Positions 2,696-52,605 of a DNA stretch of 64,000 nucleotides are shown piece by piece (positions within the stretch are counted from its first letter, which is position 1; each line of letters opens with the position of its first letter). Where the stretch lies: NCBI RefSeq assembly GCF_028641065.1, contig NC_073384.1, positions 51,398,001-51,462,000 of the forward strand. The letters are read 5' to 3'. Source of the stretch: Leucoraja erinacea (Eukaryota). The position numbers were made by a program, and so were the translations under genes. The notes under the pieces are model-generated. The model worked only from the letters and a program-made list of their open reading frames with translations, was not told where the DNA came from and did no database searches.

Positions 2696-2899
2696 TTCCA
2701 ACTTCAAACACAGAGCGTGTAAAAGCTGTCTGCGACTTTTTTACTTTGCAGCTGCAGGGCACAGACACACTTATAAGAGAAGTTTAAGTTAACTGTAAAA
2801 ACAGCACTTTTCCATCAATAGCAATGTATGTTCTTAAATCATGGATAACATTAAATGGTTTTCCTGTTGATGTACTAATATATCGTTATATATACTCAC

Positions 2900-3308
2900 A
2901 TGAGTACCCGGGATACTCCGCAGCCTTCGTCTCCAGCAGGTTCCGTTTTTTCTCCCTGTTTCTGTAATCCTCTCTGGATTTATCGTAAAGAATTTCGTTG
3001 AATTGGTACCATTCTACAAGTTCACCCTCTTGTTCCCTGGTGAAGTTATATGGCCTTACCTTCTGCCATCTTCCCTTTCTATACGCGTCTGTTGAGGCTA
3101 TTCCTACAACGGCTACTGGGGAGGCAATCTGAAATCCACCTTGCTCACCCTCTCCCTGCTCCAAGGAGCCCATAGGCAGTGTTATCTGTGGCATCTCCTG
3201 TTGCCTCTCCACCTGTCTCTCTTGCTGCGTCGCCTCCTCATTCTCCTGCACGGCAAAAACCTTTCTGACACGCGTTACCCCCTTTCTTTGAGCTTTTCTG
3301 GGAGCCAT
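2900..3308 (-). pseudogene. MADF/Myb-SANT-like DNA-binding partner protein of the transposon (first exon)
   Basis: FTREQEGELVEWYQFNEILYDKSREDYRNREKK is a MADF-like signature. ATG at 3308 (MAPRKAQRKG); the exon ends at a GTGAGT splice donor near 2899. Confidence 0.75.
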
Positions 3309-3691
3309 CTCTGCAAGTGTTCCAGTGAAAAAGATTCTCCAACAATGACAATGAGGTGGGACGTCCTCGATGGACACATGTTCCATTGGCGATATTGAGA
3401 CCGCCTTTTTTACTCACCTTCTGTCCCCTCTGTTCAGCTTCCGGTTCACCGTTCGCAGGAGTTCCCACGGTAAACGCAAGAGTTATTACGGATATCGCAC
3501 TGGCCACTATGTCCATATAATGTTTCAATGTTCAACCACAAGTGTACAAGTCACTCTTGGAGAAATTCAAGCTTGCTTGAATTTTCTCCCGAGTCAACAA
3601 GTCACACGAGTACCTGCCGTTAGCGCCACGGTGGTCCACGAATGCCATACGGTTATCGTACGAGGTTCCCATGATGTTCAACTCTGGTTAC

Positions 3692-3900
3692 TGTAAAGAC
3701 GAGTCAAAACGCATTATGTCTTCACTACTGTTTTATTACTATTAACAATACACAGATACATTACTGCCCTAGCTGTCCGTGGTCTGTCACCAGAGCTAGA
3801 GAGCGATCTAGAGGTGGGGAGGTTACAATTATACTGGTGATATGGGGAGTGGTTAATAGTGGTGAGGTCACTATGTTAAAGAACCATGCACTAGTCTACA
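3692..3900 (-). repeat. Gypsy 3' LTR
   Basis: TGTAAAGACG...GTCTACA, a direct repeat of 18408-18616 with about 6 substitutions by eye. Confidence 0.97.
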
Positions 3901-3994
3901 TCCTTTCCCTTGGAAACAATGCAGGACAGCAGTGACAGGGCGACCACGACTCATACGCTACAAGCAGTTAACCGCACACACAGGCAGGCAACAG

Positions 3995-6960: not shown

Positions 6961-8845
6961 CAAGAGAGATTCAGAGATTCAATTTTAATTGTCATTGTCA
7001 GTGTACAGTACAGAGACAACGAAATGCATTTAGCATCTCCCTTGAAGAGCGACATAGCAAACGATTTGAATAAAAAAATAATAAGTGTCCGGGGGGGGGG
7101 TGGTGATTGGCAGTCACCGAGGTACGTTGTTTAGAAGAGTGACAGCCGCCGGAAAGAAGCTGTTCCTCGACCTGCTGGTTCGGCAACGGAGAGACCTGTA
7201 GCACCTCCCGGATGGTAGGAGGGTAAACAGTCCATGGTTGGGGTGAGAGCAGTCCTTGGCGATGCTGAGCGCCCTCCGCAGACAGCGCTTGCTTTGGACA
7301 GACTCAATGGAGGGGAGCGTGGAACCGGTGATGCGTTGGGCAATTTTAACCACCCTTGCCATACCATACTGTGATGCAGTTGGTAAGGATGCTCTCGATG
7401 GTGCAGCGGTAGAAGTTCACCAGGATCTGAGGAGACAGATGGACCTTCTTCAGTCTCCTCAGGAAGAAGAGACGCTGATGAGCCTTCTTGATCAGAGTAG
7501 AGGTATTGTGGGTCCAAGAGAGGTCATCGGAGATGTTGACTCCCAGGAACCTGAAGCTAGAAACACGTTCCACCTCCGTCCCGTTAATGTGGATGGGGGT
7601 GTGCGTGCCGCCTCTGGACTTCCTGAAGTCTACAATGAGCTCCTTGGTCTTCTTGGAGTTAAGGGCCAGGTTGTTGTCAGCGCACCATGCTGCTAAGTGC
7701 TGGACCTCCTCCCTGTAGGCCAGCTCATCGTTGTTGCTGATGAGGCCAATCACCGTTGTATCATCTGCATACTTGATGATGGTGTTAGTACCATGTACAG
7801 GTGTGCAGTCATAGGTGAAGAGGGAGTAGAGGAGGGGGCTCAGCACACAGCCCTGAGGAACGCCGGTGTTCAGGGTGAGGGTTGAAGAGGTGTGCTTGTC
7901 TAACCTCACAGACTGGGGTCTGTTGGTTAGAAAGTCCAGTATCCAGTTGCAGAGGGAGGGGTCGATGCCCAGGTTACCGAGTTTGGTGATCAGTTTTGAT
8001 GGAATAATGGTGTTGAATGCTGAGCTGTAATCGATGAACAGCATTCTTACATAAGTGTCTCTGTTGTCAAGGTGGGAGAGGGCGGAGTGAAGTGCCGTTG
8101 AGATGGCATCCTCCGTACTCCTGTTCTTGCGGTAGGCAAACTGATAGGGATCCAGTGTGGGGGGTAGGCAGCTTTTGAGGTGTGCCAGGACCAGCCTCTC
8201 GAAGCACTTGGTGATGATGGGGGTAAGTGCAACTGGGCGGAAGTCGTTGAGGCTTGCCGCAGTGGAGTGTTTTGGCACTGGCACGATGGAGGTGGCTTTA
8301 AGGCAAGTGGGGACAACTGCTTGGGCAAGTGACAGGTTGAAGATGTCAGTCCAGACGTCTGTCATCTGCGCAGCACAGGCACTGAGCACGCGCCCGGGGA
8401 TGCCGTCAGGGCCAGCAGCCTTACGTGCATTAGTCCTACTCAGTGCCACGTACACGTCGTAGGGGGTGAGTGTGAGGGGTTGGTGATCGGCAGGTAGCAC
8501 AGCCTTGGTGGCTGTCTCTAGATTGTCCCTGTCGAAGCGGCCATAGAAGTGATAAGCTCCTCAAGGAAGGAAGCTCGCTCAAGGAAGGATGTTGGAGGGT
8601 CTGTAGTCCGTGATGGCCTGGATGCCTTGCCACATGCGCGGGGGTCGGAGTTGTTGTTGAAGTGCTCCTCAATCCTGAGCTTATGGGAGCTTGGTCTGAT
8701 GCCCCTAGTCCGTGATGGCCCTGATGCCCTGCAAAACATGCGTAAGGGGGGTCGGAGTTGTTGTTGAAGTGCTCCTCATAATCCTGAGCTTAGTAGCAGT
8801 GACCTTGGCCTTCCTGATGCCCCTCTTCAGGTTAGCCCTGGATGC
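6961..8845 (-). mobile_element. Rex1/Babar LINE, 5'-truncated, inserted in the Gypsy protease-RT region
   Basis: ORF 7346..8500 has [45 protein letters not shown] and KYADDTT. The 3' UTR with a GACAATTAAAATTGAATC-type tail ends at about 6961. Confidence 0.93.
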
Positions 8846-8936
8846 TCCCGTGTCAGGCCTTCAAAACAGTTGCAGATAAGGGTTCCGTAATCAGCCCGAC
8901 TGGTACGAGCAAAACCGCCCCCATAGGCATGTTAGA
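8846..8936 (-). pseudogene. Gypsy protease-region remnant
   Basis: The reverse strand gives AYGGG...PVGLIT across frameshifts, which fits upstream of PLTFYLLDT..TLLG at 6960. Confidence 0.5.
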
Positions 8937-10376
8937 TGGGAGGGAAATATATTATAAAATTGTTCAAATTAAGTTCTTAAGGAGTGCAAGAGAAGGGTTT
9001 GGAGGGGCTTTCAGAAATACATGCCTCCACAAAGAAATAAAGAACAAAGAACACACACAGGAGAACAGATGGCTTATCATAAACATGGAAAGGGTGATCT
9101 GGATAGGCATATCTATTCTTTATTGCTTTGGAGCAACAATCATGTTGTGAGAAGGTGTAGTTGGTTTAGGTTGGTGTTTATAATAGAGATTGTTAATGGG
9201 ATCTTTCTCCATGACATGGGCACCATCCTTCTTCCTTTGTGACACATCTCAGAGTTTGGCTGTGTCATCTAAGGCGATTTATGATTGTCTATGTTGGATT
9301 GTAGGCACCAAGGGTAGATACTAGTCTGTGAGATGGTTTGTGCTGTTTAGATGTGTTTATGTTGGGATAAAAGATAAGGCATAGATGATGGTTGTGTGAC
9401 CTTTGCAAAAGGATTTCTTATGTGTATAAAAAACTGAGAAAGTAACTCTGTTTTAATCTAAGCCAAACGATTGGGGTCTGCATATAGTAATCTTCTATTT
9501 GCTGTGTGGAATGCTATTCGTGGGGGGGTCGTAAAGAGACCTTACATTCCTTTCCTCCACTGATAGTAGGAGGTTGTAATTCAGAATGAAACTAGACCCG
9601 AGCTTGGAAGGAGGAATTATAATTTATCAAGTGTGACAAGTATATGGCCTTTGTGAGCTTGGAGGTGGGAATTGTGTGATTAGAACTTTGTCTTTACCAC
9701 TTTGTAAGAATGGGGTAAAACTCATCTTTAATCTTTGTAATTCATAAGTAACTGTATTTTAACTAAGTGGTTGTAAGGAAATTAATTGTGAAGTGTATTG
9801 TGTTTAATTACGATTGTGAGTATTAGACTTTGTTTAAATCGGAAGTTTTAGAAATAACTTTCTTTTCCAAAAGTGAAAATATGTTTTGTATGTATGTGTT
9901 GTGTGATTGCTATATTATGTGTATATTCTGAGAAGTATTCTGTGAGAATTAGTTTTATATCTGTGGTTTTACTTTAATGAAATAAAGTGATTTTGAGCAA
10001 AGAGGTTGAAGAAACCACAGAGGGGATGAAGGTTGTAAAGGGGCTGGAAAAGGGAAAATCATGTGACTATACGTGTTGTCAATCAATGGAAAGGATTTAG
10101 TTGATTGGTTAATGCAAATAAGTTAAATGTATGGTAAACCATAATGATTGGTTAATAGTTTGCCACTCCTTTTGTACTATCCTTGTCTTTTACCTATATA
10201 ATGTGTTACATTTATGCCAAAGTTGTAGTTCTTTCAACCTGCCCCAGAGTTTCTAACTCTGTGTTGGAAGGTTTAAAGAATTATCCAGCGCTGTCAGAAT
10301 AAAGAATCGATTCCAGCAACAAGGGTTTGAATCAAGTTTTCTTGAATTAGACTGGCAAAAAGAACTCATTTTAACA
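8937..10376 (+). repeat. ERV 5' LTR (5' edge garbled)
   Basis: Direct repeat of 16285-17739. Inverted CCAAT boxes at about 10102 and 10146, TATATAA at about 10195, AATAAA at about 10298; ends TTTTAACA. Confidence 0.95.
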
Positions 10377-10378
10377 TT

Positions 10379-10398
10379 TGGTGTCAGAAGTGGGATTC
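10379..10398 (+). promoter_or_regulatory. ERV primer-binding site, tRNA-Leu(CAA)
   Basis: TGGTGTCAGAAGTGGGATTC is complementary to the 3' end of vertebrate tRNA-Leu(CAA) and lies 2 nt after the LTR. Confidence 0.85.
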
Positions 10399-11157
10399 AG
10401 ACGGTTCACCGACAACACGAGGAACGAAAATAAGTGTTAAACTGCGCACTGATTGGACCAGAGGAATTGGCCAAGCAGAAGTGAGTAGTTAAACACCACT
10501 CTGTTTTCCTCTTCTCCGTATATCGCTGCGTAGTCGACCCTTCGTTCTTGTGTTGAACGGGATCCAGACAGAATCAGGTCAGTCTAACAAACCTTGTTGA
10601 TTGGTAAGATTGGTCATTAGGAATGATCAAAGGTGAACAGACTCGTCCATTAGGAATGGGGAGTCTTAGTCATTGGGAATGCTCCATTAGGAATGGAGAA
10701 ACTTGGTCATTAGGAATGATCAAAGGTGATGGGAATGCTCCATTAGGAATGGAGAAACTTGGTCATTAGGAATGATCAAAGGTAAATGCCGGCTGAACTG
10801 GATAAATTTATCCTGACCATTTGGAATGGCAGGAGATAGTGATTTGGAAACAGGGTCAGCTAAACACTGACAGTGCTAAATTTATCCTGACCATTTGGAA
10901 TGGCAGGAGATAGTTAGAAAGATTTGGAAACAGGGTCGGCTAATCACTGACAGTGCTAAATTAATCTCGACCATTTGGAATGGTGCGAAGTAATTAAAAA
11001 CAATTGAATTCGGATCCAGTGAAAATAAGAAATAGTAAAACGTTAACGTAATTATTATATTGTTATAAGAATATTAATACTGTGTATAGATTAAATTGGT
11101 TGTGAATATAGTACTGATCAGTGTGATAAATATATTAATTGTGATAAGTGAATTAAG

Positions 11158-12585
11158 ATGGGTAATCACTTAGATAACACCAAGAGTTCTAGCAGCCCAT
11201 TGCAGATTTTATGTGACAAATATCCTGAAAGTTCTCAGCAATTCGGAGAATTATCAGGGGCATTAAATCAGAAATTAGGTAACAAACAATGGCCTCTGGG
11301 GGGGGTCCTAGAAATCCAGATCTGGTAAAAACAAGCCCAAGAATTAATATGGAAAAGAAATGCGAATAAAAAGAGTAAAATTGATTGAATTATGGCGAAA
11401 TTGGCGTGAGGAGGAATTAGATATAAATTTAATGTTGAGGTAATGAGACGAGAGTGTGCACACGAAAGGACTAGAGGACAGGAGAGAGAAGGAAAAAGGT
11501 TTTAAAAAAAAAAAGGGACTGCGCAGTTTAAATGGTTGGCCTTCAATTAGCAGAGGGAGACGAAAGGGAGGTATGGGAAAATCAGAAAAGTCCCAGGACA
11601 GTGGCGACAGGAATTTAACCAAATTTACCTAGGACAGGATCAGAAATCGATAGTGCACCAAGCCCAGGCACCAAAAAAAAATTGGAGAAGCCCCAGTTTA
11701 GACTCTGTAGCATGGCATACATGGTCACAGTCTAGAGACCAGGAGCAAGAAGGACGAGAGGAAAGGAGGTCACACAGTTGGGACTATAAAAGGGAGCACT
11801 TGGCTGAGAAAACCACACCCCAGAAGCAACAAGGGAAGGTGCTGAAATAGACGGAATAAGAAAGCATCTTCCAGGCGCCAATATTCCGTCAGAACGGTCC
11901 CTAACCCCAGAGCCCTTATACCTCCTCCACCCAACCAACAAGATTATGGCGAAACAGGCATGAATAATGTGTGGCTGCTGTGGAAACCACATGAGATGAT
12001 GACAATTTTGTTGGGAGTGCCTAAGAAACGGAATCCACAAGCTTTCATTGAATTTTTAAGAACAACGATATCTGTATATCACGCTGATTCCCGAGAATTA
12101 TGGGTACTAGTTCAGCAAGTTTTAACAGCGATTGAGTATACCAGATTCTTGGTTCATTTAACCTAGAACAACCATGCAGCCCTAGCGGTGGCGCACCCAG
12201 GGGCAGGTAACAATGAGCATCGATTACAGCTTATGCTGGCAGCCGTGTGCCTCACTCTCCAGCAGCCAATCGATATATCAAAGGTTTTGGATATGAAACC
12301 AGGGGAAGGAGAGGCTGCAGAAGATTTTCTGGGAAGGTTTAAAAAACCCATCTACGGCAACCAGTCAGGTGACACTCAGTATCAGCAAGGAAATGACTGG
12401 CCACGGTTTTGTGCTATGGTTATGAACTGTTTGCCTTCCAGCGTTGCAATGGGTATTTAAACCAATAATATGGACTGGTCAGAGTCTTCATCGGCCCGCA
12501 TGTCAAGAGCTGTGAGAGCCTTTTGGAAAGACTGTCCTATTGGAGACAGTGAAGCCCAGGTAAAGGTAAAAACGAATATGTGATG
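11158..12585 (+). pseudogene. ERV gag (multiple stops and frameshifts)
   Basis: Starts MGNHLDNTKSSSSPLQILCDKYP (myristoylation-type MG) with a WPLGG matrix motif. Capsid-like segments include PIDISKVLDMKPGEGEAAEDFLGRF. Confidence 0.8.
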
Positions 12586-12599
12586 AGAGAAACGAGAGA

Positions 12600-14470
12600 A
12601 TTTCCACCAGTGACTGTCCCTGACTGAATGGGCTAACAAATCTGGATGTTACCCTGTTTACAGATGGCAGCTCATTCATTGTTGAAAAGGGAGAATGGTT
12701 GTCAGGCTATGTGATTGTTAATCAGGAGGGAACGACCATTGAAGCAGCATCTTTTGAGGCTCCCTTCTAAGCCCAGCTAGCCGAACTATTTGCGTTGACT
12801 AGAGCCTGCACCCTGGCCGAAGAACTATCTGCAAATATTTACACGGACTGCCAATATGCTTTTGGAGTGGTTCCTGATATGGACAATTATGGAAGAATCG
12901 GGGGTTTCTAACCTCTTCAGGGACAGTGATATCTCACAAAAATGGATTTCTAATTTGCTACAGGCCATTCAGTTACCCGGTCAGCATGCTGGTGCCAACG
13001 TTAGAGTCCATACTATAGGTTAAAACCCCAGAGATATAGGAAATCGCCTTGCCGACGATGCGGCTAAGAAAGCTTTTAGGAGTCACCAAATTGTTGGGCC
13101 CCACATGATGAGGCAGACTAAAAATTATACTAGGAATAAGTCTCCCTCGAAAAAAGGAATGCCAACCATCCAAGAAGTACTTTAAATACAGGAGGACGCT
13201 CCTGCAAAGGTAAAATAGCTGTGGCAGGACCAGGGTTGTCTGTACGATCCTGTCACTAGCTTATGGGTTACGCCTGCCGGACAGACTTGCAGGTCTGACG
13301 AGCTTGCGTTGTGGGTTATTGAATTTGTACACTTTGCAACTCATTGTGGGACCAAGGCTGTAAGTGATATGCTTTTAGAGACCTGGTGGCATCTGAAACT
13401 TCTGACTTGTCCCGGCGTATCAGCCAGCGATGTCTGATTTGCTAGCAGCATAATCCAGGTAAAGGCTTGCCCTGTGAACCAGATTCCTTTACCAGCAGGT
13501 CCCTTTGAGACCTTTCAAATGGACTACATTGAGTTGGAAAGATGTCAGTGTTATAAGTATGTTTTTGTAATTATTTGTGTTCTTAGTAAATGAATAATTA
13601 GTGTAAACGCCTCTCATGTGTGTGGTAGCATTATGTTTTTGAATGAATGCTGAAGTTAAGTATTTTATTTGTTGTAAATCACATGTTATAAGTGTAGGTG
13701 TGTGTCGCTTTAAAAAAACTGTAAGCAGGAGGGTGAAGTTTTTTTTACAGCTACCCTCGGCTGTGAATTTAACCTCTCAATTTAAAAGGGGAAATAAGTT
13801 GATTGCTGAAACACAACCAGCTTTAATGGTTTGTTTAGATAACCATTCTGGTTGGAGAAGGGTAATAAATCAATGGAGCCAGGGAAGAAGGCAACTGACT
13901 GATAATGGGTTAATCATGAGTTAAATTGATATTTTGCTAAATCACTGGAATATAACATATTTGATCACTCCTCTTTGACAGAAAAATTGAAAGTTTGTTG
14001 GGTTTATTTTAATCCGTTGTATTTTACCTGTTTTTAAGATGCAAACAGTATTATGTGACAATCCAGCTGAGATTTCAAAGTGGATTGATTGGATTGTTTG
14101 CTGAAATTTTCAGAAAAAGACAGTGTATTGGATAGTATGGAGAACTATAGAAGATGGGCATAATAAGAATACAGACCACTCCATCTGGTACAGCAAGAAT
14201 AACGCCTGTGGAAATCCTATGTATTAACTTTAACCTGTGCTTTGCGAACTACTTATTTACAGGTCAGGGCTGCATATGGTGTGGCGCCAGCACTCAAAGT
14301 TCCATCTAATACTGAGCCAGGTTGCTATGTGCTGATCAGGAACTGGATGCGTAAGCACTTGGACCCACGTTGGGATGGTCCCTTCCAGGTCATTCTCACC
14401 ACTCCGACCGCTGCCAAGGTCGAGGGTCGTGCTGCATGGGTTCACCTGCACCACTGCAAATTGATTGGGG
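12600..14470 (+). pseudogene. ERV pol remnant: RNase H and split integrase; no protease or RT
   Basis: RNase H: FTDGSSF..AQLAELFALTRAC..ANIYTDCQYAFGVV. Integrase: HFATHCG..CLIC, PFETFQMDYIEL, TPVEIL and LDPRWDGPFQVILTTPTAAKVEG..WVHLHHCK. Confidence 0.9.
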
Positions 14471-14767
14471 AGCCCAATCAAAAGGGGGGGAGAAGAGTAA
14501 TTTTATTTTCAACTCAAGAGTTTTTAGTTTTTACATTTCTGCTTTGTTTGGGAGTTGTATCATTATAAGTTTAGTTGTATTATTATAAGTTTAGTTGTAT
14601 TATTATAAGTTTAATTTTGAAACCTTATTTTGCCATATGGTTAAGAATATGCGACTGATTACTGGACTGACTGACTGAAGGACGTTTAAATTGAGTAAAT
14701 AGTTGTTTAAGCTAATTAAGTAAGAAATGAGTTTTTGTGAGCCTTTGCTTATTCCAGATAGATTAAA

Positions 14768-16048
14768 ATGAGGCGATTCATCCTGCTCTGCATCCTGATG
14801 CTACAACAGATGGAAGGAAATAAAGGAGAGATTTGACGATATGTCCTGGGACAATTAAGCAGAATCTTTCACCTCTGCAAAGGAGATGTGGTACAGTGCA
14901 ATGGCCCGGATGCCTTTGGAATCTGAAATGTCACCAAGATTGACTATTGCAATGGGATACTGCGTCAGCCTGATCGACAGGTAGACTTAGATAACCGACA
15001 CCCTGTGGGAATTACCCTATTAGTTTCGAGGGTGCAAGTTTGACTTTTTCTGCAGACGGAATCCCTTGGAAGAAAACTCGGCAAAGGGACATTTGTATGA
15101 TGGACTATGCTATCGAGAAGCATTAGAGGTATACCTTTGGTTACAGAAGAAAGGACATGAGCAAAAGAGACAGTAAAAACGGGCATTGGAAGAAAGAGAC
15201 TCTATCATGTTTGGACGAGCCCATAATGAATTATTTGGTGAAGGGCAAGTTGTGTGTTACCCCGCTATGACATCTGTTGTTAACCTATTTACAGTATCTC
15301 CCGAGTGGGGAAGGATTGAACGATTAGTAAAATGTCAAGGTGAGAAGCCATTTCCGGTGGAAACTGTCACCATCCCTAATGATGAGACCTTAGCCCCACC
15401 AGCTAACTGTTTGCCACTACCTCGTGACAATGAGCATTCTTACCAGGGTTGTGAGGATACACAATGTACAATTTTGGTCGCCTAACTATAGGAAGGATGT
15501 CAACAAAATAGAGAGAGTACAGAGAAGTTTAGGGGTAACATGCGAGGAAACTTCTTTACTCAGAGAGTGGTAGCTGTGTGGAATGAGCTTCCAGTGGAAA
15601 TGGTGGAGGCAGGTTCGATGTTATCATTTAAAAATAAATTGTATAGCTATTTGGACGGGAAAAGAATGGAGGGTTATGGTCTGAGTACAGGTAGCTGGGA
15701 CTAGGGGAGAATAAGTGTTCGGCACGGACTAGAAGGGACGAGATGGCCTGTTTCTGTGCTGTAATTGTTATATGGTTATAGAATTAGATCATTGGTATGG
15801 CCATATGAGCAGCAATAGTGGTTTTGTGTTTGTTCATGGGAATTGCTATTGTTAGATGTATTAGTGCTAGACTAATGACAGTCTTGGGTAATGTGGAAAC
15901 TGGTGAGAAGATATTATTGCAACATCTAGAAGAAGAAGAAATTCCAATGTTGAAGGATGAGGATGTTGAAAGGATGGTAAATGCGCAGGTTGAAAAAGAA
16001 TTGTTAGCAGATAAATGTATTAGAATGAATAAATTGGAGATGGACTAG
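14768..16048 (+). pseudogene. ERV env remnant (signal peptide, partial SU, TM anchor and tail)
   Basis: MRRFILLCILMLQQMEG signal-like start, Cys-containing segments, and hydrophobic VVLCLFMGIAIVRC followed by an acidic tail. The central part is replaced by CR1. Confidence 0.7.
15488..15780 (+). mobile_element. CR1 3' fragment inside ERV env
   Basis: YRKDV..IERVQR joined to RGNFFTQRVVAVWNELP, followed by a CR1 3' UTR and a TTATATGG tail. Confidence 0.88.
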
Positions 16049-16284
16049 TGGTATGAAGCCTAGAATAGTTGAGAACCCTAAGGGCTAGGGTTTGAAGCAT
16101 AGCAGAGAAGTAGGGAACAGCATTGGTGTCAACAAGCCAACCTGCCGACCTACGTGGTCCGGGTTTTGGGGGCTATAAAGCATCTGAGGTTAGGTATAAA
16201 CTTGGATGACTAATAAGCCAATGCTGATGAATTTCTGTTGTGTTATTATCCTATTAGTGGTCATAATATGACCAGAAGAGGGAA

Positions 16285-17739
16285 TGAGGAAATATATTAT
16301 AAAATTGTTCAAATGATAAGTTCTTAAGGAACTTGTGTTAAGTTGCAAGAGAAGGGTTTGGAGTTGGGGCTTTCAGAAATACATGCCTCCACAAAGAAAT
16401 AAAGAACAAAGAACACACACAGGAGAACAGATGGCTTATCATAAACATGGAAAGGGTGATCTGGATAGGCATATCTATTCTTTATTGCTTTGGAGCAACA
16501 ATCATGTTGTGAGAAGGTGTAGTTGGTTTAGGTTGGTGTTTATAATAGAGATTGTTAATGGGATCTTTCTCCATGACATGGGCACCATCCTTCTTCCTTT
16601 GTGACACATCTCAGAGTTTGGCTGTGTCATCTAAGGCGATTTATGATTGTCTATGTTGGATTGTAGGCACCAAGGGTAGATACTAGTCTGTGAGATGGTT
16701 TGTGCTGTTTAGATGTGTTTATGTTGGGATAAAAGATAAGGCATAGATGATGGTTGTGTGACCTTTGCAAAAGGATTTCTTATGTGTATAAAAAAACTGA
16801 GAAAGTAACTCTGTTTTAATCTAAGCCAAACGATTGGGGTCTGCATATAGTAATCTTCTATTTGCTGTGTGGAATGCTATTCGTGGGGGGGTCGTAAAGA
16901 GACCTTACATTCCTTTCCTCCACTGATAGTAGGAGGTTGTAATTCAAAATGAAACTAGACCCGAGCTTGGAAGGAGGAATTATAATTTATCAAGTGTGAC
17001 AAGTATATGGCCTTTGTGAGCTTGGAGGTGGGAATTGTGTGATTAGAACTTTGTCTTTACCACTTTGTAAGAATGGGGTAAAACTCATCTTTAATCTTTG
17101 TAATTCATAAGTAACTGTATTTTAACTAATTGGTTGTAAGGAAATTAATTGTGAAGTGTATTGTGTTTAATTACGATTGTGAGTATTAGACTTTGTTTAA
17201 ATTGGAAGTTTTAGAAATAACTTTCTTTTCCAAAAGTGAAAATATGTTTTGTATGTATGTGTTGTGTGATTGCTATATTATGTGTATATTCTGAGAAGTA
17301 TTCTGTGAGAATTAGTTTTATATCTGTGGTTTTACTTTAATGAAATAAAGTGATTTTGAGCAAAGAGGTTGAAGAAACCACAGAGGGGATGAAGGTTGTA
17401 AAGGGGCTGGAAAAGGGAAAATCATGTGACTATACGTGTTGTCAATCAATGGAAAGGATTTAGTTGATTGGTTAATGCAAATAAGTTAAATGTATGGTAA
17501 ACCATAATGATTGGTTAATAGTTTGCCACTCCTTTTGTACTATCCTTGTCTTTTACCTATATAATGTGTTACATTTATGCCAAAGTTGTAGTTCTTTCAA
17601 CCTGCCCCAGAGTTTCTAACTCTGTGTTGGAAGGTTTAAAGAATTATCCAGCGCTGTCAGAATAAAGAATCGATTCCAGCAACAAGGGTTTGAATCAAGT
17701 TTTCTTGAATTAGACTGGCAAAAAGAACTCATTTTAACA
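16285..17739 (+). repeat. ERV 3' LTR
   Basis: TGAGGAAATATATT...TTTTAACA, directly after the polypurine tract. Confidence 0.96.
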
Positions 17740-18308
17740 GAGGAACTGGTATCAGAATCAGGCAGTTCGTCCGAATAGTGCTGTGAACGGAGCGCCGCCG
17801 CCATGCGAGAGGCGTGCAGAGCCTCTGTCAAAGTCAGATCGGGCTTCCTTAGAAGTTCAGCCCGCAGTTTTTTTTCGTCCTGGAGACCGAACACCAGGAT
17901 GTCCCGGGTCATTTGATCAGGGGTCAGCGCGTCCAGGTGGCAACGCCGTGCCAGATGCCGTAGCGTGGCAATGTAGGTGTCAATGTGCTCACTGGGGTTC
18001 TGGCGCCTGGTGAAAAACTTAAAGCGCTCTAGAATGCAGTTGGTGGGAATGTCGCACAGACCGGTGAACTTAGCCAAAAGACATACCGGGTCCCGAGCAT
18101 CCTCACCATCACCGTATTCAAACGACTCCGATCGTTCCAGGGCCTCCAGGCCAGCCAAGTTTAGGAGCAGGTGCGACTGCGTTGCAGAGGTGGCATTAGG
18201 ATGGGCAATGGCAATGTAGTGCTCAAAATCATGTCGGAAGACAGCCCACCGATGGGCAATGTCGGAGTCGAAGACCAGCATATCAGGCTTGCGACAAGAG
18301 TTGGCCAT
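17740..18308 (-). pseudogene. Gypsy gag N-terminal part, truncated by the ERV
   Basis: MANSCRKPD..WAVFRHDFEHY..ERFKFFTRRQNPSEHIDTYIATLRHLARRC..RDILVFGL..LTLTEA, a Mag-type gag. Confidence 0.9.
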
Positions 18309-18407
18309 GGTAGGGCACGGGAGAGAAACACTCGAGGGTAAGGAACTGGGCGATAAAAAGAAATAAAACCCGTTAAACAGGAGGCGCAAGGTACTACTAT
18401 GACACCA

Positions 18408-18616
18408 TGTAAAGACGAGTCAAAACGCACTATATCTTCACTACTGTTTTATTACTATTAACAATACACAGATACATTACTGCCCTAGCTGTCCGTGGTC
18501 TGTCACCGGAGCTAGAGAGCGATCTAGAGGTGGGGAGGTTACAATTATACTGGTGATATGGGGAGTGGTTAGTAGTGGTGAGGTCACTATGTTAAAGGAC
18601 CATGCACTAATCTACA
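18408..18616 (-). repeat. Gypsy 5' LTR
   Basis: Direct repeat of 3692-3900 with an adjacent PBS. Confidence 0.97.
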
Positions 18617-27169: not shown

Positions 27170-28316
27170 TTACCTACTTTAATGAATTTCCCATCGTGCA
27201 TGATAGGCTGCACTGGAAGGTTGGATCTCATGGGATCCAAGGAGAGATGGATAGCAAATTGGCTCCATGGAAGGAAGCAGAGGGTGATGGTGGAAGGTTG
27301 CTTCTCAGAATAGCAGCCTATGACTAGTGGTGTACCACAGGGTTCGGTGCTGGGCCTGTTACTGTTTGTCATCTACATCAATGATTTGGATGAGAACATA
27401 CAGGGCAAGATTGCTGCTGATACAAAAGCTAGTGGTTTTACAGATAGTGTAGATGGTTGTGAATGATTGCAGCAGGATCTGGATCGATTGGCCAGGTGGG
27501 CGGAGGACTAGTTGATGGAATTTAATACAGAGAAGTGAGAGGTGTTACATTTTGCGATGCCGAACAAGGGCAGGACCTACACAGTAAATCTGGGTACTGT
27601 TGTAGAGCAGAGGGATCTAGGAGTACAAGTGCATGGTTCCATGTAGTCGCAGGTAGATAAGGTGGTCAAAAAGGCTTTAGGCACTTTGGCCTTCATCAGT
27701 CAGAGTATTGAGTATGGAAGGTGGGAGGTCATGTTGTAGTTGTATAAGACGTTGGTGAGACTGAATTTAGAATATTGTGTTCAGTTCTGGGCACCATGTT
27801 ATAGGAAAGATATTGTCAAGCTTGAAAGGGTTCAGAAAAGATTTATGAGGATGTTGCCAGGACTAGAGCGTGTGAGCTATAGGGAGAGGTTGAGTAGGCT
27901 GGGTCTCTATTCCATGGAGTGCAGGAGGATGAGGGGGGATCTTATAGAGGTATACAAAATCATGAGCGGAATAGATCGGGTAGATGCACATAGTCTTTTA
28001 CCCAGAGCAGGGGAATCGAGGACCAGAGGACATCGGTTCAAGGTGAAGGGGAAAAGATATAATAGGAATCCTAGGGGTAACTTTTTCACGTATGGAACAT
28101 GGTGGATGTATGGAACAAGGTGCCAGAGGAGGTAGTTGAGGCTGAGACTATCTCATCATTTAAGAAACAGTTGGACAGCTACATTGACAGGACAGGTTTG
28201 CAGGGTTATGGACCAAGTGGGACTAGGGTAGATGGACATTGTTGGCCGGTGTGGGGGAGTTAAGCCGAAGGGCCTGTTTCCACACTGTATTACTCTATGA
28301 CTATGACTCTATGACT
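27170..28316 (+). mobile_element. CR1 LINE 3' fragment (RT)
   Basis: SGVPQGSVLGLLLF and [27 protein letters not shown]; (ACTCTATG)n tail. Confidence 0.93.
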
Positions 28317-37494: not shown

Positions 37495-38435
37495 CATGGC
37501 CGTCCGAAGGTGGGGTGCGTTGGGTGCGACCGCACCCCCCTTTTTTTCCCTTAAGAAAAAAGTCACACAAAAAATACAACAAAAAAAATCTGAAAAAAAA
37601 ATTTAAAAATCTGGAAAAAAAAATCAACGTTTCCACTTTAGAAACGGCCAGTTCTCTGTTCTCAGGCTGAATCTGAACCCAACGGCTGTAACCCCAACAC
37701 CAGTCGCTGCTGCGGTGGAGCCAGCTCCCCTCGCCTCCCCCCCCCGCCGGGGCAAAAGCCATCTCCCCCCCGCTGACCCCCCCGCTGGGTCCACGCCACC
37801 CCCGCTGGGCCCACGCCACCCCCGCTGGGCCCACGCCACCCACGCTGGACCACCGCTAGGCCCACGCCACCCCCGCTGGGCTCATGCCTCCCCCACAACC
37901 CCCGCTGGGCCCACCGCTGCTGGGCCCTCGTCACCCCCGCTGGGCCCACGCCACCCTCGCTGACCCCCGCTGGGCCCACGCCACCCTCGCTGACCCCCGC
38001 TGGGCACACGCCACCTCCGCTGGGCCCATGCCACCCCCACTGACACCTGCCTGGTCCCTGCCACCCCCACGGGGCCCACGCCACCTTCATCCCCCCCGCC
38101 CGCTGGGCCCGCGCCACCTGCATCTTCCCCCCCCCCCCCCAAGAAAAAGGGGGGATGTGAGAGGGGGGGGGGGGGGGAGAGAGGTGGTTGGAGGGAGGAG
38201 AGAGAGATGGGGAGGGAAAGGGGGATTACCTTGAGTGAGATTGCAAAATTAAGGTAGGTTTTGGAGCTATTAAATTTTCTCCTCCATATGAATAATATTA
38301 AACAATAATATCAAACAATTGGAACTGCTTTCTTTTCGATAATAATACTGAAAAATATGAATTCCATAGTTTGTGACATAAATACACACTTTAATGGGAT
38401 CATTATACACAGATGTAACATTTCCATCTTGAGAT
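37495..38435 (+). mobile_element. Probable non-autonomous hAT-like element (left end only) containing a GC-rich minisatellite
   Basis: Starts CATGGCCGTCCGAAGGTGGGGTGCG..GCGACCGCACCCC, typical of hAT MITE ends. No right TIR or TSD was found. Confidence 0.4.
37765..38120. repeat. GC-rich minisatellite, unit of about 20 bp (CCCCCGCTGGGCCCACGCCA)
   Basis: More than a dozen degenerate tandem copies are visible. Confidence 0.9.
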
Positions 38436-39140: not shown

Positions 39141-39870
39141 GATCTCTGTACTCTTTTCAGTTTGACATATTTCCTATAACATGGTGCCCAGAACTGAACA
39201 CAATACTCTAAATGCGGTCTCACCAACGTCTTATACAATTGCAACATGACCTCCCAACTTCTATACTCGATACTCTGACTGATGAGGGTCAAAGTGCCAA
39301 AATACGTTTTGACCACCTGATATACCTGCGACACGACCTTCAAGGAACCATGCAACCATCAACCATTCCTCTGCCCACCTGGCTAATTGATCCAGATCCT
39401 GCTGCAATCTTTCACAACCATCTTCACTATCTGCAAAACCACTCACTTCTGTATCATCAGCAAACTTGCTAATCTTGCCCTGTTATGTGATGTTTCAGAG
39501 TGCTGGAGTAACCCAGCGGGTCAGGCTGAGTATAGAAGTTGGGAGGGTCATGTTGCAGTTGCATAAGAAGTTGGTGAGGCCGCATTCAGAGTATTGTGTT
39601 CAGTTCTGGGCACCATGTTATAGGAAAGATGTCATCAAACTGGAAAGGGAAACAGTGAAGATTTACGAGGATGTTGCCAGACCTAGAGGGCCAGAGCTAT
39701 AGGGAGAGGTTGAGTAGGCTGGGACTCTATTTCATGGAGCCCAGGAGGCTGAGGGATGATCTAATAGAGGTGTATAAAATCATGATTTGAATAGATATTA
39801 GTTGAGTCTTTTGCCCAGAGTAAGTGAATCGAGGAGCAGAGGCCATAAGTTTAAGGTGAAGGGCAAAAGA
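39141..39870. mobile_element. Two CR1 fragments in opposite orientation (39141-39480 minus, 39525-39870 plus)
   Basis: [21 protein letters not shown] appears on both strands. Confidence 0.85.
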
Positions 39871-41989: not shown

Positions 41990-43230
41990 TAACTAGATTA
42001 GTTAATGATGATTGGGTTTTGCGCCCAGGACCGGCGGGATGAGTGTCTCTGGGCAGCACTGAGATATTGCAATGTGTTGAGACGAGGCAAGCCTGGCCAC
42101 TTTACTTCCTGCTTTGCAAGCGAGGTCCTGACCCGCACATCCCGGCGGAGGGTTTTTTCCTCCGTTTTCGCGATGTTCACTATCAGCGAATCAAGTCCCC
42201 CTGGAGCTTTTCTGCTCAGTTGGCAGAAACTTTAAAACGGAATAGCGAACGCCAGTCGTGAACCAGGCAGCCGCCAGGCAAACTTTGCGACGGGGCACTA
42301 CATTCTCCTGAACATGGCCGCGCAATGTTATCTGTTTACAGGATGCAACGCGCCGTACTGTAAAAGGCTAAAGTGTCGCGGCTGAGACAGGGGAGTCACC
42401 GAAGGGGAAACTTTTTGCAACAAATTAACTCATTTGCACCACGAAGAAATAAACAATCAGCTCCCAGTTTGGCTCTTGTCGCCTTTTCGCTGCATCCAGA
42501 AGCGGGGCAAAGGGATTGCATGCGATTGCAAGAGGCAGGTGAGAATTCTGGGCTATTTTTGGATGATGGTAAAAAGATGACTTTTACTGGGGTTGGATTT
42601 TTTTTTTCTCCCTACACGGCGTCGGTATGCAGCAGCGGGGAGAGGCCTGGCATGCACTTTGTGCTTTACAGCTGCACTGGGCGATTAGATGGTGCACTTA
42701 CCTGGCTGGGGTGCAAGCCTGTCAAACCTCTCTTGACATTGGCACCAGGCATCACGGGGCTGAGCGCCGCGCTGCGGAGCGGCGGGGGGGCGGGGGGCGC
42801 TTGGCCAAGGAGCGGTTGCAACCACAGGCACCGGTGCTGCTGCTCCTTTGCGCACATTTTTTTTTAATTGTGTGCGAGCGCTTGGTGCATGCTTGCAAAG
42901 GTTGGAAAGTTAACTGACGCTCGCATGTTGGCACTGAAGAAGTCATTTTCAAGGATAGTTGGAGGAAGTTGATTGCCTTTTCTCCTTTTCCCACCCCCCT
43001 CTCCCCGCAATAACCTGCCTTTACTGAGCTTGTTGCAACACTGCAAGGAAGGGGCGGGGAGTTACTGGGTGTACAGTTCTCATTGAAGTTGAAAGCAGAA
43101 GTCGGTCTTGCCCAAAAGACATGCTGTTGGATTGTTTTTTGGGTTGGGACAAATTCTTCGCAGGGAAATAGAACGAAGACTCATTAGCTCTTGAGTAAGG
43201 TGTGCACACTCTAAGGGCAATGACAGTCAG
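41990..43230. promoter_or_regulatory. CpG-rich, repeat-free region: candidate promoter or first exon of an unidentified host gene
   Basis: High CpG density against an AT-rich background, a GC box GGGGCGGGG (about 43051), ETS-like ACTTCCTG, and a consensus minus-strand donor CAG|GTAAGT at 42702/42701. Confidence 0.55.
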
Positions 43231-44197
43231 GTGAACATGTCACTGCTGGAGTGAATCAAACGTGAATTGAGTTGGCTTTTCTGCATTTATTTAATCGCAT
43301 CGATGTCGTGTATGTCTAACACAAACTTGTGCACTTATGGTTGAAGCGTCCTTTCCTTATGTGAAACCTTTGAGGAGAAACCCGTGTGGACTGCAAAGAG
43401 TAGACAAAAAGAAACTTCGGATTTGAAATATATATAATCGTCTCCTGAGATTTCAGATTTTTGATTAGGCTTTGACAAATGTACTGTTGATTACATTTTT
43501 GCAGGATTGAATTACATTGTGCAGATGTCAAGGCAACGACTAACAATTCAAATTGGAATATTGTCAAATATTTTGCAGAAGTCTGTAATGTTGCAGATAT
43601 CCTCGCTCGCTGAAAAACAATTGTTGATATTGTAGAGTGATACAGTGTGGGAATAGGCCCACTGCCTAAATCCAAACAGATCATCAATCACCCATTTATA
43701 TTAATCCTATCTGAATCCCATTTTTATTTGTTAATTAACAGTGGCTAATTAATCTATTAACTCACTTGTCTTTAAAGGAAGCCCACACAGTCTCAGGAAG
43801 ATCGTGCAATTTGGCTAGGACAGTACCTGAGGTCAAGATTGAATCTGGGTCTCTGGCGATACTGGGCAACAGCTCTACTTGCCATGTCGTCATGCATTCC
43901 TCATGAAATATCCATAAGGATATTTTCCTTAATAAACTTACTTTCAGATCAAGTTGTGTCGAAAATTACAATAAGAAAGTTTCTCGCGAGCCCATTACTT
44001 TTTTTTTCACTATAAGATCATCCTAAACTCTAATTGGATCTCAAACTATATATTTAAGGATTTGGTTTATGTCGTACCATCTCAAATGTGAACACTCACT
44101 TTCTCTGCAAGAGCAATACATTCTCAAGATTTGAAGCTGACAACTGACAGTAGAATTCCAGCTGCAATCCAAACCAGATGTCCACACAACTATAAAC

Positions 44198-44436
44198 CAT
44201 ATTTCACACAGAGAATGGTGAATCTCTGGAATTCTCTGCCACAGAAGGTAGTTGAGGCCAGTTCATTGGCTATATTTAAGAGGGAGATATATATGGCCCT
44301 TGTGGCTAAAAGGATCAGGGGTTATGGAGAGAAGGCAGGTACAGGATACTGAGTTGGATGATCAGCCATGATCATATTGAATGGCGGTGCAGGCTCGAAT
44401 GGCCTACTCCTGCACCTATTTTCTGTGTTTCTATGT
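44198..44436 (+). mobile_element. CR1 3' end
   Basis: FTQRMVNLWNSLPQKVVEA and the same 3' UTR family as 233-770. Confidence 0.9.
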
Positions 44437-46431: not shown

Positions 46432-47938
46432 CAGTGCCCTCCAGAATGTTTGGGACAAAGACCAATCATTTATTTATTTTCCTCTGTACTCCACAATTTG
46501 AGAGTTGTAATAGAAAAAAAATCACATATGGTTAAAGTGCACATTGTCAGATTTTATTAAAGGCAATTTTTATACACTTTGGTTTCACCATGTAGAAATG
46601 GCAGCTGTGTTTATACATAGTCCCCCCATTTCAGGGCACCATAATGTTTAGGACACGTGGCTTCACAGACATTTGTAATTACTCAGGTGTGTTTAAATGC
46701 CTCCTTAATGCAGGTATAAGAGAGCTCTCAGCACCTAGTCTTTCCTTCAGTCTTTCCATCACCTTTGAAACATTGTATTGGTGTTTATCAACATGAGGAC
46801 CAAATTTGTGTCAATGAAAGTCAAATGCCATTATGAGACTGAAAAACAAAAATAAAACTGTTAGAGACATCAGCCAAACCTTAGACTTATCAAAATCAAT
46901 TGTTTGGAACATTATTAAGAAGAACGAGAGCACTGGTGAGCTTACTAAACACAAAGGGACTGGCAGGCCAAGGAAGACCTCCATAGCTGATGACGGAAGA
47001 ATTCTCTCTATAATAAAGAAAACTCCCCAAACACCTGTCCAACAGATCAGAAACACTCTTCAAGAGTCGGTGTGGATTTGTCAATGACCACTGTCCACAG
47101 AAGACTTCATGAACAGAAATACAGAGGCTACACTGCAAGATGCAAACCACTGGTTAGCCACAAAAATATGATGGCCAGGTTACAATTTGCCAAGAAGTAC
47201 TTAAAAGAGCAACCACAGTTCTGGAAAAAGATCTTGTGGACAGATGAAATGAAGATTAACTTATATCAGAGTAATGCCAAGAGCAAAGTATGGAGGAGAG
47301 AAGGAACTGCCCAAGATCCAAAGCATACCACCTCGTCTGTGAAACACGGTGGTGGTGATATGGCCTGGGCACGTATGGTTGCTGAAGGTACTGGCTCACT
47401 CATCTTCATTGATGATACAACTGCTGATGGTAGTAGCATAATGAATTATGATGTGTATAGACACATCCTATCTGCTCAAGTTCAAACAAATGCCTCAAAA
47501 CTCATTGGCCAGCAGTTCATTCTACAGCAAGACAATGATCCCAAACATACTGCTAAAGCAACAAAGGAGTTTTTCAAAACTAAAAAATGGTCAATTCTTC
47601 AGTGGCCACGTCAACCATCCAATCTGAACCCAATTGAGCTGCCATGCCTTTTATATGCTGAAGAGAAAACTGAAGGAATACGAAACATGACTACTCTCAT
47701 TTACATAACATTGCTGTTCCCCAAACATTATGGAGCCCTGAAATGGGGGGTACTGTGTATAAACACTGCTGTAATTTCTACATGATGAAACTAAAATGTA
47801 TAAAAATGGCCTTTATTAAAATCTGACAATGTGCATTTGAACCACGTGATTTTTTTCTATTACAACTCTCAAATTATGGAGTACAGAGGCAAATAAATAA
47901 ATGATAGGTCTTTGTCCCAAACATTATGGAGGGCATTG
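46432..47938 (+). mobile_element. Tc1 transposon with long IR/DR-type TIRs; transposase frameshifted and 3'-deleted
   Basis: TIR CAGTGCCCTCCAGAATGTTTGGGACAAA / TTTGTCCCAAACATTATGGAGGGCATTG, with TA on the right (TG on the left) and inner direct repeats. Motifs GRPRK, ILWTDEMKI, QQDNDPKH and PSNLNPIE. Confidence 0.96.
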
Positions 47939-49576: not shown

Positions 49577-50692
49577 ACTTTGCATTTTCTATGACTCCTG
49601 CATGATGTTTTGTTGCATCTATTTATGAAGAGTTCCAGGCCATTGTTTCTTTTGGAGACTTCCAAACTTGAAGCCTTCTAGTAAACTGCATGACTTTTTT
49701 TATATGGTGGCTGCAGTAGTGTGCTTCATAAGCTAATAAATTGCTAGATGGGTATCGGTACCGATGGAGTATTTGATGAAAGATTTTGTTATTTGGCTGA
49801 GAAAGTCTGATTGAAAATCTGTGTTGAAGAAATCCTAAAGGTCACTTATATACATTGATCTATTTCTGAGATTTGTGCTCAAGGACAATTGAATTTGATG
49901 GCAAAGACTATTTTCACCCTTATGGCGATCGGCTTGGGTACGGTTTCTCATGAGTGGAATCTTGCAGCACAAAGCTCCCTTTAATTTTATGTTGGCTGGT
50001 TTTCATGGATAATGTTATATTCATACCATCTCAGTTTATTGTGATGTTGAAGATGAAGCTACTACTGGTACTGAGCAGGATGTGTATGATACTGGCATTT
50101 CAGACTACTTAATGCTGACACTTGGATACAAGCAGTTACGGCATGATGTTTTATAGTGTTGTGGTCCTTCTTTAGTAATTTAACTGTTTGTTTCAAAATC
50201 AGTGTTTCTGTTAGTTTGTATGTTTAAAATTACTGTAACTTCAGCATGAAATAACCTGTTGGACTGAAGGCTTTAAATGTTTGTGCATTGTGAATTTACA
50301 GTTCATGGGCATAAAACAGCTGTTGGTTGTGTATAGGCTCAGCTGTCTATGTTCCAAGCCAGTTTGCACAGCGCATAGTTCAGGATCTTGTGTTTGGTCA
50401 CTGGGCCTCAGCATTTCAGTCAATGTTCCATTCCTTGTGTAAGGAAATAACTACACAGATAAGGGAGGCACGGAGCATTTTTTCCATTGCAGCCCACTGA
50501 TTCTTATTTTACTTTAAATCATAGTTTATCTCATGTCTACACTCTGCCTTTCAAGCTCTTTAAAAGTTTTATTCGTGTTTCTCAGTCTCATAATGGCTTC
50601 TTTGACTTTCATTCGCACATCTTTGGTCCTCATGTTGATAAACAGCAATAAAAGTTTCCAAAGGTGATGGAAAGACTGGGGAAAGATTAGGT

Positions 50693-51220
50693 CAGGGGTT
50701 GGAAACCTTGTTCTGCCGACGTCGCGCCGCCCACCTGCCACTGCGCACCATCGAGCCACCCAGTGACAGCTCGGTGGACATGAGCGACCGGTCTGAGTGG
50801 GGCTCGCTGGGCTGGCAGCTGACCTGGGCTACGAGGCAGAGGCCCAACCCCCCCATGCCTCCCTTCCTTGACCCCGTCCACCAGAACCCTCCCCCAACCC
50901 GCCTGGACCCCCTTGGAGAGGCCAGTCGCAATGGCAAAGCGGAGGCCGAGCTGTCTGACGGGGACAACGAGAGCCTGGACAGCACGCTCAACTCCAACAA
51001 GGCCATCAACTGCAGCACAGGCTCCTTGTGCCGGGACAGCCTGCCCGAAACGCCCTCCTGCCCACAGACCTACCTGCGGGAAACACATCACAGCTGGGAC
51101 TCCCCCACCCTCAACAATGACGGCAGTACCGCATCGGAATAAAAAAAAGACGCCAGCAGGCCGGGTGACATTGGGTTATGGGCCGCATCCAGCCCGTGGG
51201 CTGTAGGTTGCCGACCCCTT
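50693..51220 (+). mobile_element. Non-autonomous hAT (Charlie-like) carrying a captured gene fragment
   Basis: TIRs CAGGGGTTGGAAACCT and AGGTTGCCGACCCCTT. The 8-bp TSD copies GATTAGGT and AACTAGGT each differ by one base from the Tc1 site GACTAGGT (reverse complement at about 46733-46740). Confidence 0.9.
50716..51138 (+). pseudogene. IQSEC2: Captured fragment of an IQSEC/BRAG ARF-GEF coding exon (region just before the Sec7 domain); IQSEC2-like, paralog uncertain
   Basis: [25 protein letters not shown]..QL, then SDGDNESLDSTLNSNKAINCSTGS..RDSL.E..C.QTYLRETHHSWDSP.LNND, then RQYRIG in a shifted frame. This matches my recollection of IQSEC1/2 ([28 protein letters not shown].ND...HYRIG). Confidence 0.85.
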
Positions 51221-52605
51221 AACTAGGTGCTGAGAGCTCTCTTATACCTGCATGAAGGAGGCAATTAAACACACCTGAGCAATTACAAACACCTGTGAAG
51301 CCATGTGTCCCAAACATTATGGTGCCCTGAAATGAGGGCACTTATGTATAAACACTGCTGTCATTTCTACATGGTGAAACCAAAATGTATAAAAATCCCC
51401 TATAATAAAATTGGCCAATGTGCACTTTAACCACATGTGATTTTTTTTCTATTACATTTCTCAAATTGTGGAGTACAGAGGCAAATAAATAAATGATGTG
51501 TTTTTATCCCAAACATTATGGAGGGCACTGTATGATATGCCCTTTCTCTGGGAGATTTTGTATTTATCGAAGACCAATGCACTTTCAACAGTTTAAAATA
51601 CAGTTAGTTAGGATACTTCTGTGCAACATTGTTTCAAATTGTTGCCAGGCACATTGGCTTTAAATTAAGTTAATATTGTGGTTGGGATTAGGTAATAAGC
51701 GCTTTTTTGTCAAAATGCAACAGATAAACTACTCTTAACAATGAAAACTGTCCATCCAGGAGCTGCTTGGTATTTACCATGTTATAAATTCAGTCAACAT
51801 AAACACTGTGTGATTTTCTTACGTGACTAGTTCAAAGTTTTCTTACATACCTTACCTGACCTGGTTCTATGAAATTACACGTTATCACGTACATTTCATT
51901 TTTAAATGTGATACAATATACAGCATGTTTAAAACCAAGCATTATAGGATGGTTGCATTTCATTGTTCTGTGCACAGAGGACGGACGATGTGACGAGTAA
52001 GATGGTCTGTTTACCTCGATGCAATCATGGAACGTTTCAGAACTTGTTAATTCTAATTAAATCTTGCATCTTGGAAGACAACCAAGCAGCCCAAAGCACC
52101 GACCGGTCTTGACTCTGAAAGAATTAACGGAGTCGAATTCCTCATCCTGTTCCCCGTGCTTCTCCATTTCTGGAAGCTATTTATGGAGCCTGACCCATCC
52201 AAGCTTGTGTTGCAGCAGGTGAATGAGGACTGAGATATATCGTGTTTTGTGAAAAAAACAACTTAAATGTATGTCCTTCAGTTGTTCACTGACAGGCAAA
52301 AAATATTATACCCCAATTTACTTAAATCAGGCTTTCCATTTTTAGACCCAGTCTGAAGAAGGGTCCCAACCCAAAACATCTGTCCATTTCCCTCCCCAGG
52401 TGCTGGCTGACTCACTGAGTATCTTGAACATTTTATTTTTTGCTCACGTCTGATGTCTCCTCTCACTGTGAGAATGATCAGTTGTCCTTTTTACCACATG
52501 TCATGAATGAAGATTGCTTTCTCAACGACTTGTACTAATCTAAGAACTATTTCAGTGTTCTCTCGGTTCAAAAGTATCTCAAAGAATTAAGCCAGTTTAA
52601 GATAT

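Follow-up and report, generated by a model that had tools for sequence, protein, structure and literature searches.

A decayed IQSEC2 coding fragment between hAT transposon ends, nested in a Tc1 copy of Leucoraja erinacea

When host coding DNA is found between the ends of a cut-and-paste transposon, the question arises whether it was carried to the site by that transposon or was built into a transposon already resident there. Such a composite lies in the stretch of Leucoraja erinacea DNA analysed here (64,000 nucleotides of contig NC_073384.1, hereafter the window, to whose numbering all positions refer). The initial annotation had described a hAT element with a captured piece of an IQSEC exon, inserted in a Tc1 element, and had taken the empty site in another Tc1 copy to mean that the composite had moved as a unit.

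The ends of the element, 50693 and 51220, were set independently by alignment of the interrupted Tc1 to the intact Tc1 copy, and the features concerned are the following.

46432–47938, plus strand: Tc1 copy 1, which has a decayed transposase, the empty site and both TIRs, 89.6% identical to each other
50557–51530, minus strand: Tc1 copy 2, a 5′ fragment comprising the left TIR and the 5′ region, split by the element; blastn identity to copy 1, 90.6% and 85.4%
50685–50692, plus strand: left 8-bp TSD, GATTAGGT; 7/8 to the empty site
50693–51220, no strand assigned: non-autonomous, apparently Buster-type hAT Pack-TIR with a captured IQSEC2 fragment; 528 bp, ends from the empty Tc1 site alignment
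50693–50716, plus strand: left arm of about 24 bp (16-bp TIR and about 8 bp more); the cargo match starts at 50717
51139–51220, plus strand: right arm of about 82 bp, with AATAAA, a run of eight A (51141–51148), a GC-rich subterminal part and the TIR
51221–51228, plus strand: right 8-bp TSD, AACTAGGT; 7/8 to the empty site

Removal of 50693–51220 together with one target copy restored a Tc1 sequence alignable to 46432–47938, and after this in silico excision 392 of the 434 alignment columns were identical between the interrupted and the intact copy. The empty site of the latter, GACTAGGT, was read on the minus strand at 46733–46740, which confirms the insertion inside Tc1 and the empty site annotated at about 46733. 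The intact copy also matched two Pfam transposase families (HTH_Tnp_Tc3_2, E = 2.8 × 10−14; DDE_3, E = 3 × 10−6, slightly below the cut-off). The length of 528 bp, the hAT TIRs and the 8-bp duplication were thus recovered much as first described, with the correction that the duplication is imperfect: the two flanks agree at 6/8 positions, and the central TA is present in both flanks and in the empty site. The two TIRs match at 13/16 positions (12/15 when scored over 15 bp), and the terminal base of the right TIR is altered. Note that these scores are not rare by themselves when the window is scanned freely: 48 pairs with a TIR match of at least 11/15 and a TSD of at least 6/8, and nine pairs with at least 12/15 and the same TSD threshold, were found among 31.8 million position-length pairs; at the ends defined by the empty site, the corresponding chance rate is about 3 × 10−7.

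The TIR and the target of the carrier appear to fit the Buster branch of the hAT superfamily. Each TIR matches the TIR of the burbot Buster element LlBT at 13/16 positions in a by-eye comparison (Table S2, PMC12637253), and the target agrees with the Buster consensus nnnTAnnn (PMC3517528), which for this single site has a chance of approximately 1 in 16. The Buster hATs LlBT, CrBT, TcBuster and SPIN share with the element a 14–16-bp TIR of the same pattern and an 8-bp TSD; in contrast to them, the element is without transposase, and its ends are far below the length needed for efficient transposition of AnBT (PMC12637253). No transposase sequence was found inside 50693–51220, no further copy of either TIR (up to three mismatches) occurs in the 64-kb window, and a literature search for the TIR motif retrieved no paper.

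Between the two arms lies the cargo, the features of which are as follows.

50717–51138, plus strand: captured, decayed IQSEC2 coding fragment from upstream of the Sec7 domain, 66% GC; shark IQSEC2-like proteins at E = 2 × 10−37 to 3 × 10−33
50820–50890, plus strand: two likely frameshifts that compensate each other, one of about +5 near 50822–50829 and the other in the C-rich linker
51119–51138, plus strand: frame break after N-N-D, with R-Q-Y-R-I-G in a different frame and about four codons missing

The IQSEC2-derived interior of 422 bp has the size and GC-richness first ascribed to it (the 1-kb flanks have 38% GC), and its origin in host coding DNA was borne out. Translation of 50714–51139 gave 457 protein matches among 839 candidates, and the top four were shark IQSEC proteins, the best with E = 2.2 × 10−37, 57% identity and 95% coverage; a PDB search returned IQSEC2 (6FAE, E = 5 × 10−4), and no Pfam family was assigned to the cargo ORF or its other frames. 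An extension of the BLAST match into 50654–50716 was dismissed as chance, because the DNA there aligns to Tc1. The initial annotation had left the parent as IQSEC1 or IQSEC2, and here the match stands, with IQSEC2 rather than IQSEC1 as the parent. In a tree of the cargo and 20 named non-human proteins, the cargo groups with the four shark proteins (support 96/99) on a long branch, and since these four are separate from the IQSEC1 clade in a Sec7-PH tree (100/100), they are considered to be IQSEC2, notwithstanding the label “IQSEC1-like” on one of them; both trees left out IQSEC3 and shark IQSEC1.

The cargo is truncated within coding sequence at both ends. It corresponds to approximately residues 585–760 of human IQSEC2 (offset from bat), and the part past residue 733 presumably belongs to the same exon. 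Exon 5 of human IQSEC2 encodes residues 523–733 (PMC6752297). With six full-length IQSEC queries (E ≤ 1), the cargo was the sole match in the window, so that no other IQSEC piece was found within 50 kb to the left or 12.8 kb to the right of the element. Additionally, no ray or skate IQSEC2 was present among the matches listed, either with the cargo as the query (120 of the 457 matches) or with the shark region (120 of 976 matches, from 8000 scored candidates). IQSEC2 was present in four sharks; poor assembly of GC-rich DNA, the limits of the search or gene loss may explain this absence from the listed matches.

Decay of the cargo is evident at codons invariant in 15 IQSEC2 orthologues: 9/62 are changed, five of them in a CpG-compatible manner (linker 50820–50914 omitted), and in a leave-one-out control, the real orthologues differed at 0/62 codons (13/15 orthologues) or 3/65 (2/15). 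The divergence at constrained sites was estimated as 6–8%. The observed/expected ratios of 0.61 for CpG and 1.87 for TpG, together with the CpG-type codon changes, agree with the CpG decay noticed initially, and this CpG loss suggests that the cargo was methylated for a long time. The interior had also been described as open for about 135 codons, which holds in that a stop-free frame runs for 149 codons from the TIR; what does not hold is the IQSEC frame itself, which is broken near 51121 and probably earlier too. The open frame lacks the conserved Y-E motif, and G-Y-E-A-E can be read in a different frame following a 5-nt near-duplication; of three shark proteins, one led a frameshift-aware alignment to choose the shift and two did not. 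Judged from these features, the cargo frame probably departs briefly from the IQSEC frame and later does so for good, and the 149-codon open frame is probably accidental, hiding compensating frameshifts. The stop that one frameshift alignment shows at 50869 was left uncounted, as its presence varies with the placement of the second shift. A functional IQSEC exon would have an intact frame, splice sites, exons next to it and the conserved residues; the cargo does not show these features and, to judge from the sequence, is no working exon.

A Pack-TIR is defined by 100–5000 bp of non-TE DNA, here 422 bp, between the two ends of one TIR element, with a unique parent at no less than 90% DNA identity, and by not being a retrocopy (no intron loss, own TSD or tail). 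On all of the features that could be scored, the element appears to be a hAT-class animal Pack-TIR, and we have little doubt that it is a Pack-hAT. In a survey of 100 animal genomes, 55 contained Pack-TIRs, 370 in total, and hAT was the carrier of 208; exonic cargo was present in 13.4% (Tan et al. 2021, PMC8277862). The rarity of such capture in vertebrates claimed initially was overstated. In that survey, animal Pack-TIRs, like the element, have TIR ends around 100–5000 bp of host DNA, with a median cargo of 224 bp, and decayed carriers, hAT being the commonest; what sets the element apart is its unusually short arms (PMC8277862). The closest comparison is Pack-hAT-N8_XT of Xenopus tropicalis, which carries CAPSL 5′ UTR sequence and is also a vertebrate non-autonomous hAT with approximately 290 bp of host DNA and a similar total length (538–562 bp with a 291-bp cargo in the frog multi-copy hAT-N8 cases), but which occurs as three copies flanked by three TSDs, its arms being nearly complete, whereas one copy with coding cargo was seen here (PMC8277862). 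The plant Pack-MULE and Pack-TYPE elements share with it the non-autonomous TIR structure and GC-rich coding fragments (PMC8903248), although they are often multi-copy (36% in rice, cited in PMC8277862). A term search of the supplements of Tan et al. found elephant shark as the only cartilaginous fish, with no cases, and no matches for IQSEC or skate (PMC8277862). Among the top listings of the literature searches, there was no matching case for IQSEC2 with shark, skate, transposon or pseudogene, nor for gene capture in cartilaginous fish. The element is possibly the first Pack-TIR in sharks or rays.

As to how the cargo was acquired, the empty site shows that the hAT was inserted; it does not follow that the cargo was already aboard, and the conclusion that the composite moved as a unit had to be given up in that form, as the cargo may be a later addition through repair. 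We give about even chances to capture in place, by repair within the resident hAT. In this scenario, a Tc1 copy would already have been in place, and a Buster-type hAT would have entered its 5′ region with duplication of an 8-bp target having a central TA, both of these steps being directly visible at the locus. A double-strand break inside the hAT, caused by a fragile site or by its own excision, may then have been repaired by template switching onto an IQSEC2 exon, in a manner that would have replaced the hAT interior with approximately 420 bp of coding DNA and reduced the arms to about 24 and 82 bp; of this step, the outcome can be seen. Free of protein constraint, the cargo would subsequently have decayed through methyl-CpG loss and small indels, as its sequence displays. 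The composite would thus have been formed at this site, single-copy, poorly remobilisable and without function.

Alternatively, the exon piece could have been captured elsewhere by fork stalling and template switching, and cut-and-paste transposition could then have brought the composite, perhaps one of several copies, to this site. We regard this as a serious but less probable account. The composite is bounded by both TIRs and the TSD; the parent IQSEC2 is not nearby, and the GC-rich cargo and distal position are traits of the four multi-copy vertebrate cases (PMC8277862). Moreover, a random window would be likelier to strike a multi-copy family. In Tan et al., 57% of the catalogued Pack-TIRs lie less than 15 kb from the parent and the multi-copy ones are always distal; GC-rich capture is a tendency of multi-copy Pack-TIRs but not of the single-copy ones, and the breakpoints of gap filling are biased to the element interior, with little removed (PMC8277862). 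The distance from the parent and the GC content of the cargo favour transposition over capture in place, and the breakpoint about 24 bp from one element end speaks against the latter.

Against movement as a unit stands its low base rate, since only 4/281 unique animal Pack-TIRs, and 3/23 in frog, are multi-copy (PMC8277862). Repair within a resident element is reported as the main animal capture route, and in primates a cargo-less element is found at the orthologous site in 91/97 cases (Tan et al. 2021, PMC8277862). The left arm of 24 bp would also be a poor substrate if AnBT is a guide, although this comparison concerns another element in human cells, where TIR-only ends were non-functional and 41–64-bp ends nearly so (PMC12637253). 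The arms of the frog multi-copy hAT-N8 cover nearly the full 265-bp consensus, against a total of about 106 bp here (PMC8277862). Neither the window nor the protein searches contained a sibling. There was no second copy of the element in the 64 kb; a near-length protein search gave one match from five candidates, at 49% identity, decayed copies being rarely annotated; and of 24 HMMER matches (E ≤ 0.001) among 1.84 billion representatives, a search that would miss unannotated relics, none was a sibling, with 69% at best along part of the query and no more than 60% across most of it. On balance, a multi-copy family is unlikely.

The nesting in Tc1 also allowed the cargo to be dated, although this evidence is weak. 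Non-CpG replacement changes at constrained sites of the cargo amounted to 4/142 (2.8%, CI 0.8–7.1) against 13/219 non-CpG changes (5.9%, CI 3.2–9.9) on the host Tc1 branch; therefore, the cargo shows no excess age. At the age of the Tc1, about 9–10 changes would be expected in the cargo against the four seen (P = 0.03–0.06, composition-weighted rates), while the Fisher test between cargo and Tc1 gave P = 0.21, and a looser column cut-off gave 7/168 (P = 0.10–0.18). Between the cargo and the hAT ends there was no sign of an age difference (P = 0.11–0.37), as movement of the unit would have it, and a cargo younger than Tc1 is also expected if capture shortly preceded insertion. The base rate, the near-bare left TIR with its AnBT parallel and the absence of excess age in the cargo nevertheless favour capture in place.

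An RNA route, with reverse transcription of a truncated and A-tailed IQSEC2 transcript into a hAT MITE already at the site, is improbable. It would account for the eight-A run directly 3′ of the cargo and for the six bases after this run, which match the word at the left junction (50718) at 5/6, a score reached by a random 6-mer of the element at 19/462 positions (4%); moreover, intron loss cannot rule it out, since the cargo apparently lies within one exon. However, the cargo terminates mid-exon rather than at a 3′ UTR, the junction word on the left sits within codons matching IQSEC2, and A or T runs of eight or more number 29 in the window. L1 target sites are A-rich, unlike the putative target here. 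The reading of the cargo as the real IQSEC2 exon, or as a chimera of the assembly, for which the stop-free frame and the lack of a ray or skate parent among the matches listed might speak, has next to no probability given a single IQSEC match in 64 kb, ends cut in coding sequence, changed invariant residues, a broken frame and a location at a clean TSD-marked insertion; the possibility of a genuine spliced exon, raised at the outset, is thereby answered in the negative.

The rest of the window is rich in other elements. Two direct repeats (8943–10376 and 16288–17739), each about 1.45 kb long and 98.5% identical to one another, enclose a stretch with an MLV-type integrase C-terminal match at 14203–14565; they appear to be the long LTRs of an endogenous retrovirus-like insertion of fairly recent origin. 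A minus-strand Gypsy-type element spans 3692–18616, with RT and RNase H at 4947–7130, integrase at 4456–5022 and 209-bp direct repeats at 3692–3900 and 18408–18616 (97%); it is apparently split by a LINE RT (7349–8560) and by the retrovirus-like element, giving three levels of nesting. Long inverted repeats at 39163–39634 (89-bp arms, 294 bp apart) and 27405–27976 were noted, likely MITEs with related copies near 27400–28000, as was a GC-rich minisatellite at 37739–38118 with units of about 20–30 bp. The minus-strand ORF 2889–3413 has a weak MADF/Myb-SANT match (E = 0.002, below the cut-off) and is possibly a Harbinger-type relic. A GC-rich island at 42000–43200 contains a possible minus-strand first exon at 42857–42702 with a GT donor at its end, about 7.5 kb from the Pack element, which lies upstream of it; the ESM Atlas gave no usable match for this guessed exon. 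No host gene was found above the Pfam cut-off in 135 ORFs of 38.5–64 kb (ORFs under 62 aa and most below 38.5 kb left out), and a zf-MIZ match at 44044–44262 was rejected (19.8 bits against a cut-off of 33.5, no PDB support). Rfam gave no matches at the gathering score.

The position of the element in the Tc1 5′ region bears on its possible activity, through one further feature.

51241–51246, minus strand: putative TATA-like word in the 5′ region of Tc1, antisense to the cargo and 26 bp upstream of the right end of the element

IQSEC2 is a dosage-sensitive neuronal gene. By analogy with the left end of Sleeping Beauty, which has promoter activity (PMC6446368, PMC10138897), antisense IQSEC2 RNA from a Tc1 promoter at the element is possible, and antisense regulation by Pack-TIRs has already been raised by Tan et al. 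(PMC8277862). A multi-copy Buster Pack-hAT family that carries the exon piece on a near-bare TIR and, from the Tc1 promoter, yields antisense transcripts and small RNAs against the parent IQSEC2 is very improbable, multiple copies together with expressed antisense RNA being less likely than multiple copies alone. As a single decayed copy, the element is a fossil without sign of function; siblings, if found, would add value, as four multi-copy vertebrate families are reported (PMC8277862). Capture in place or otherwise, the locus extends Pack-TIR capture to a lineage apparently outside the one animal survey, and because nesting in Tc1 provides a rough clock as well as the empty site, it offers a clean test of capture in place against capture followed by transposition.
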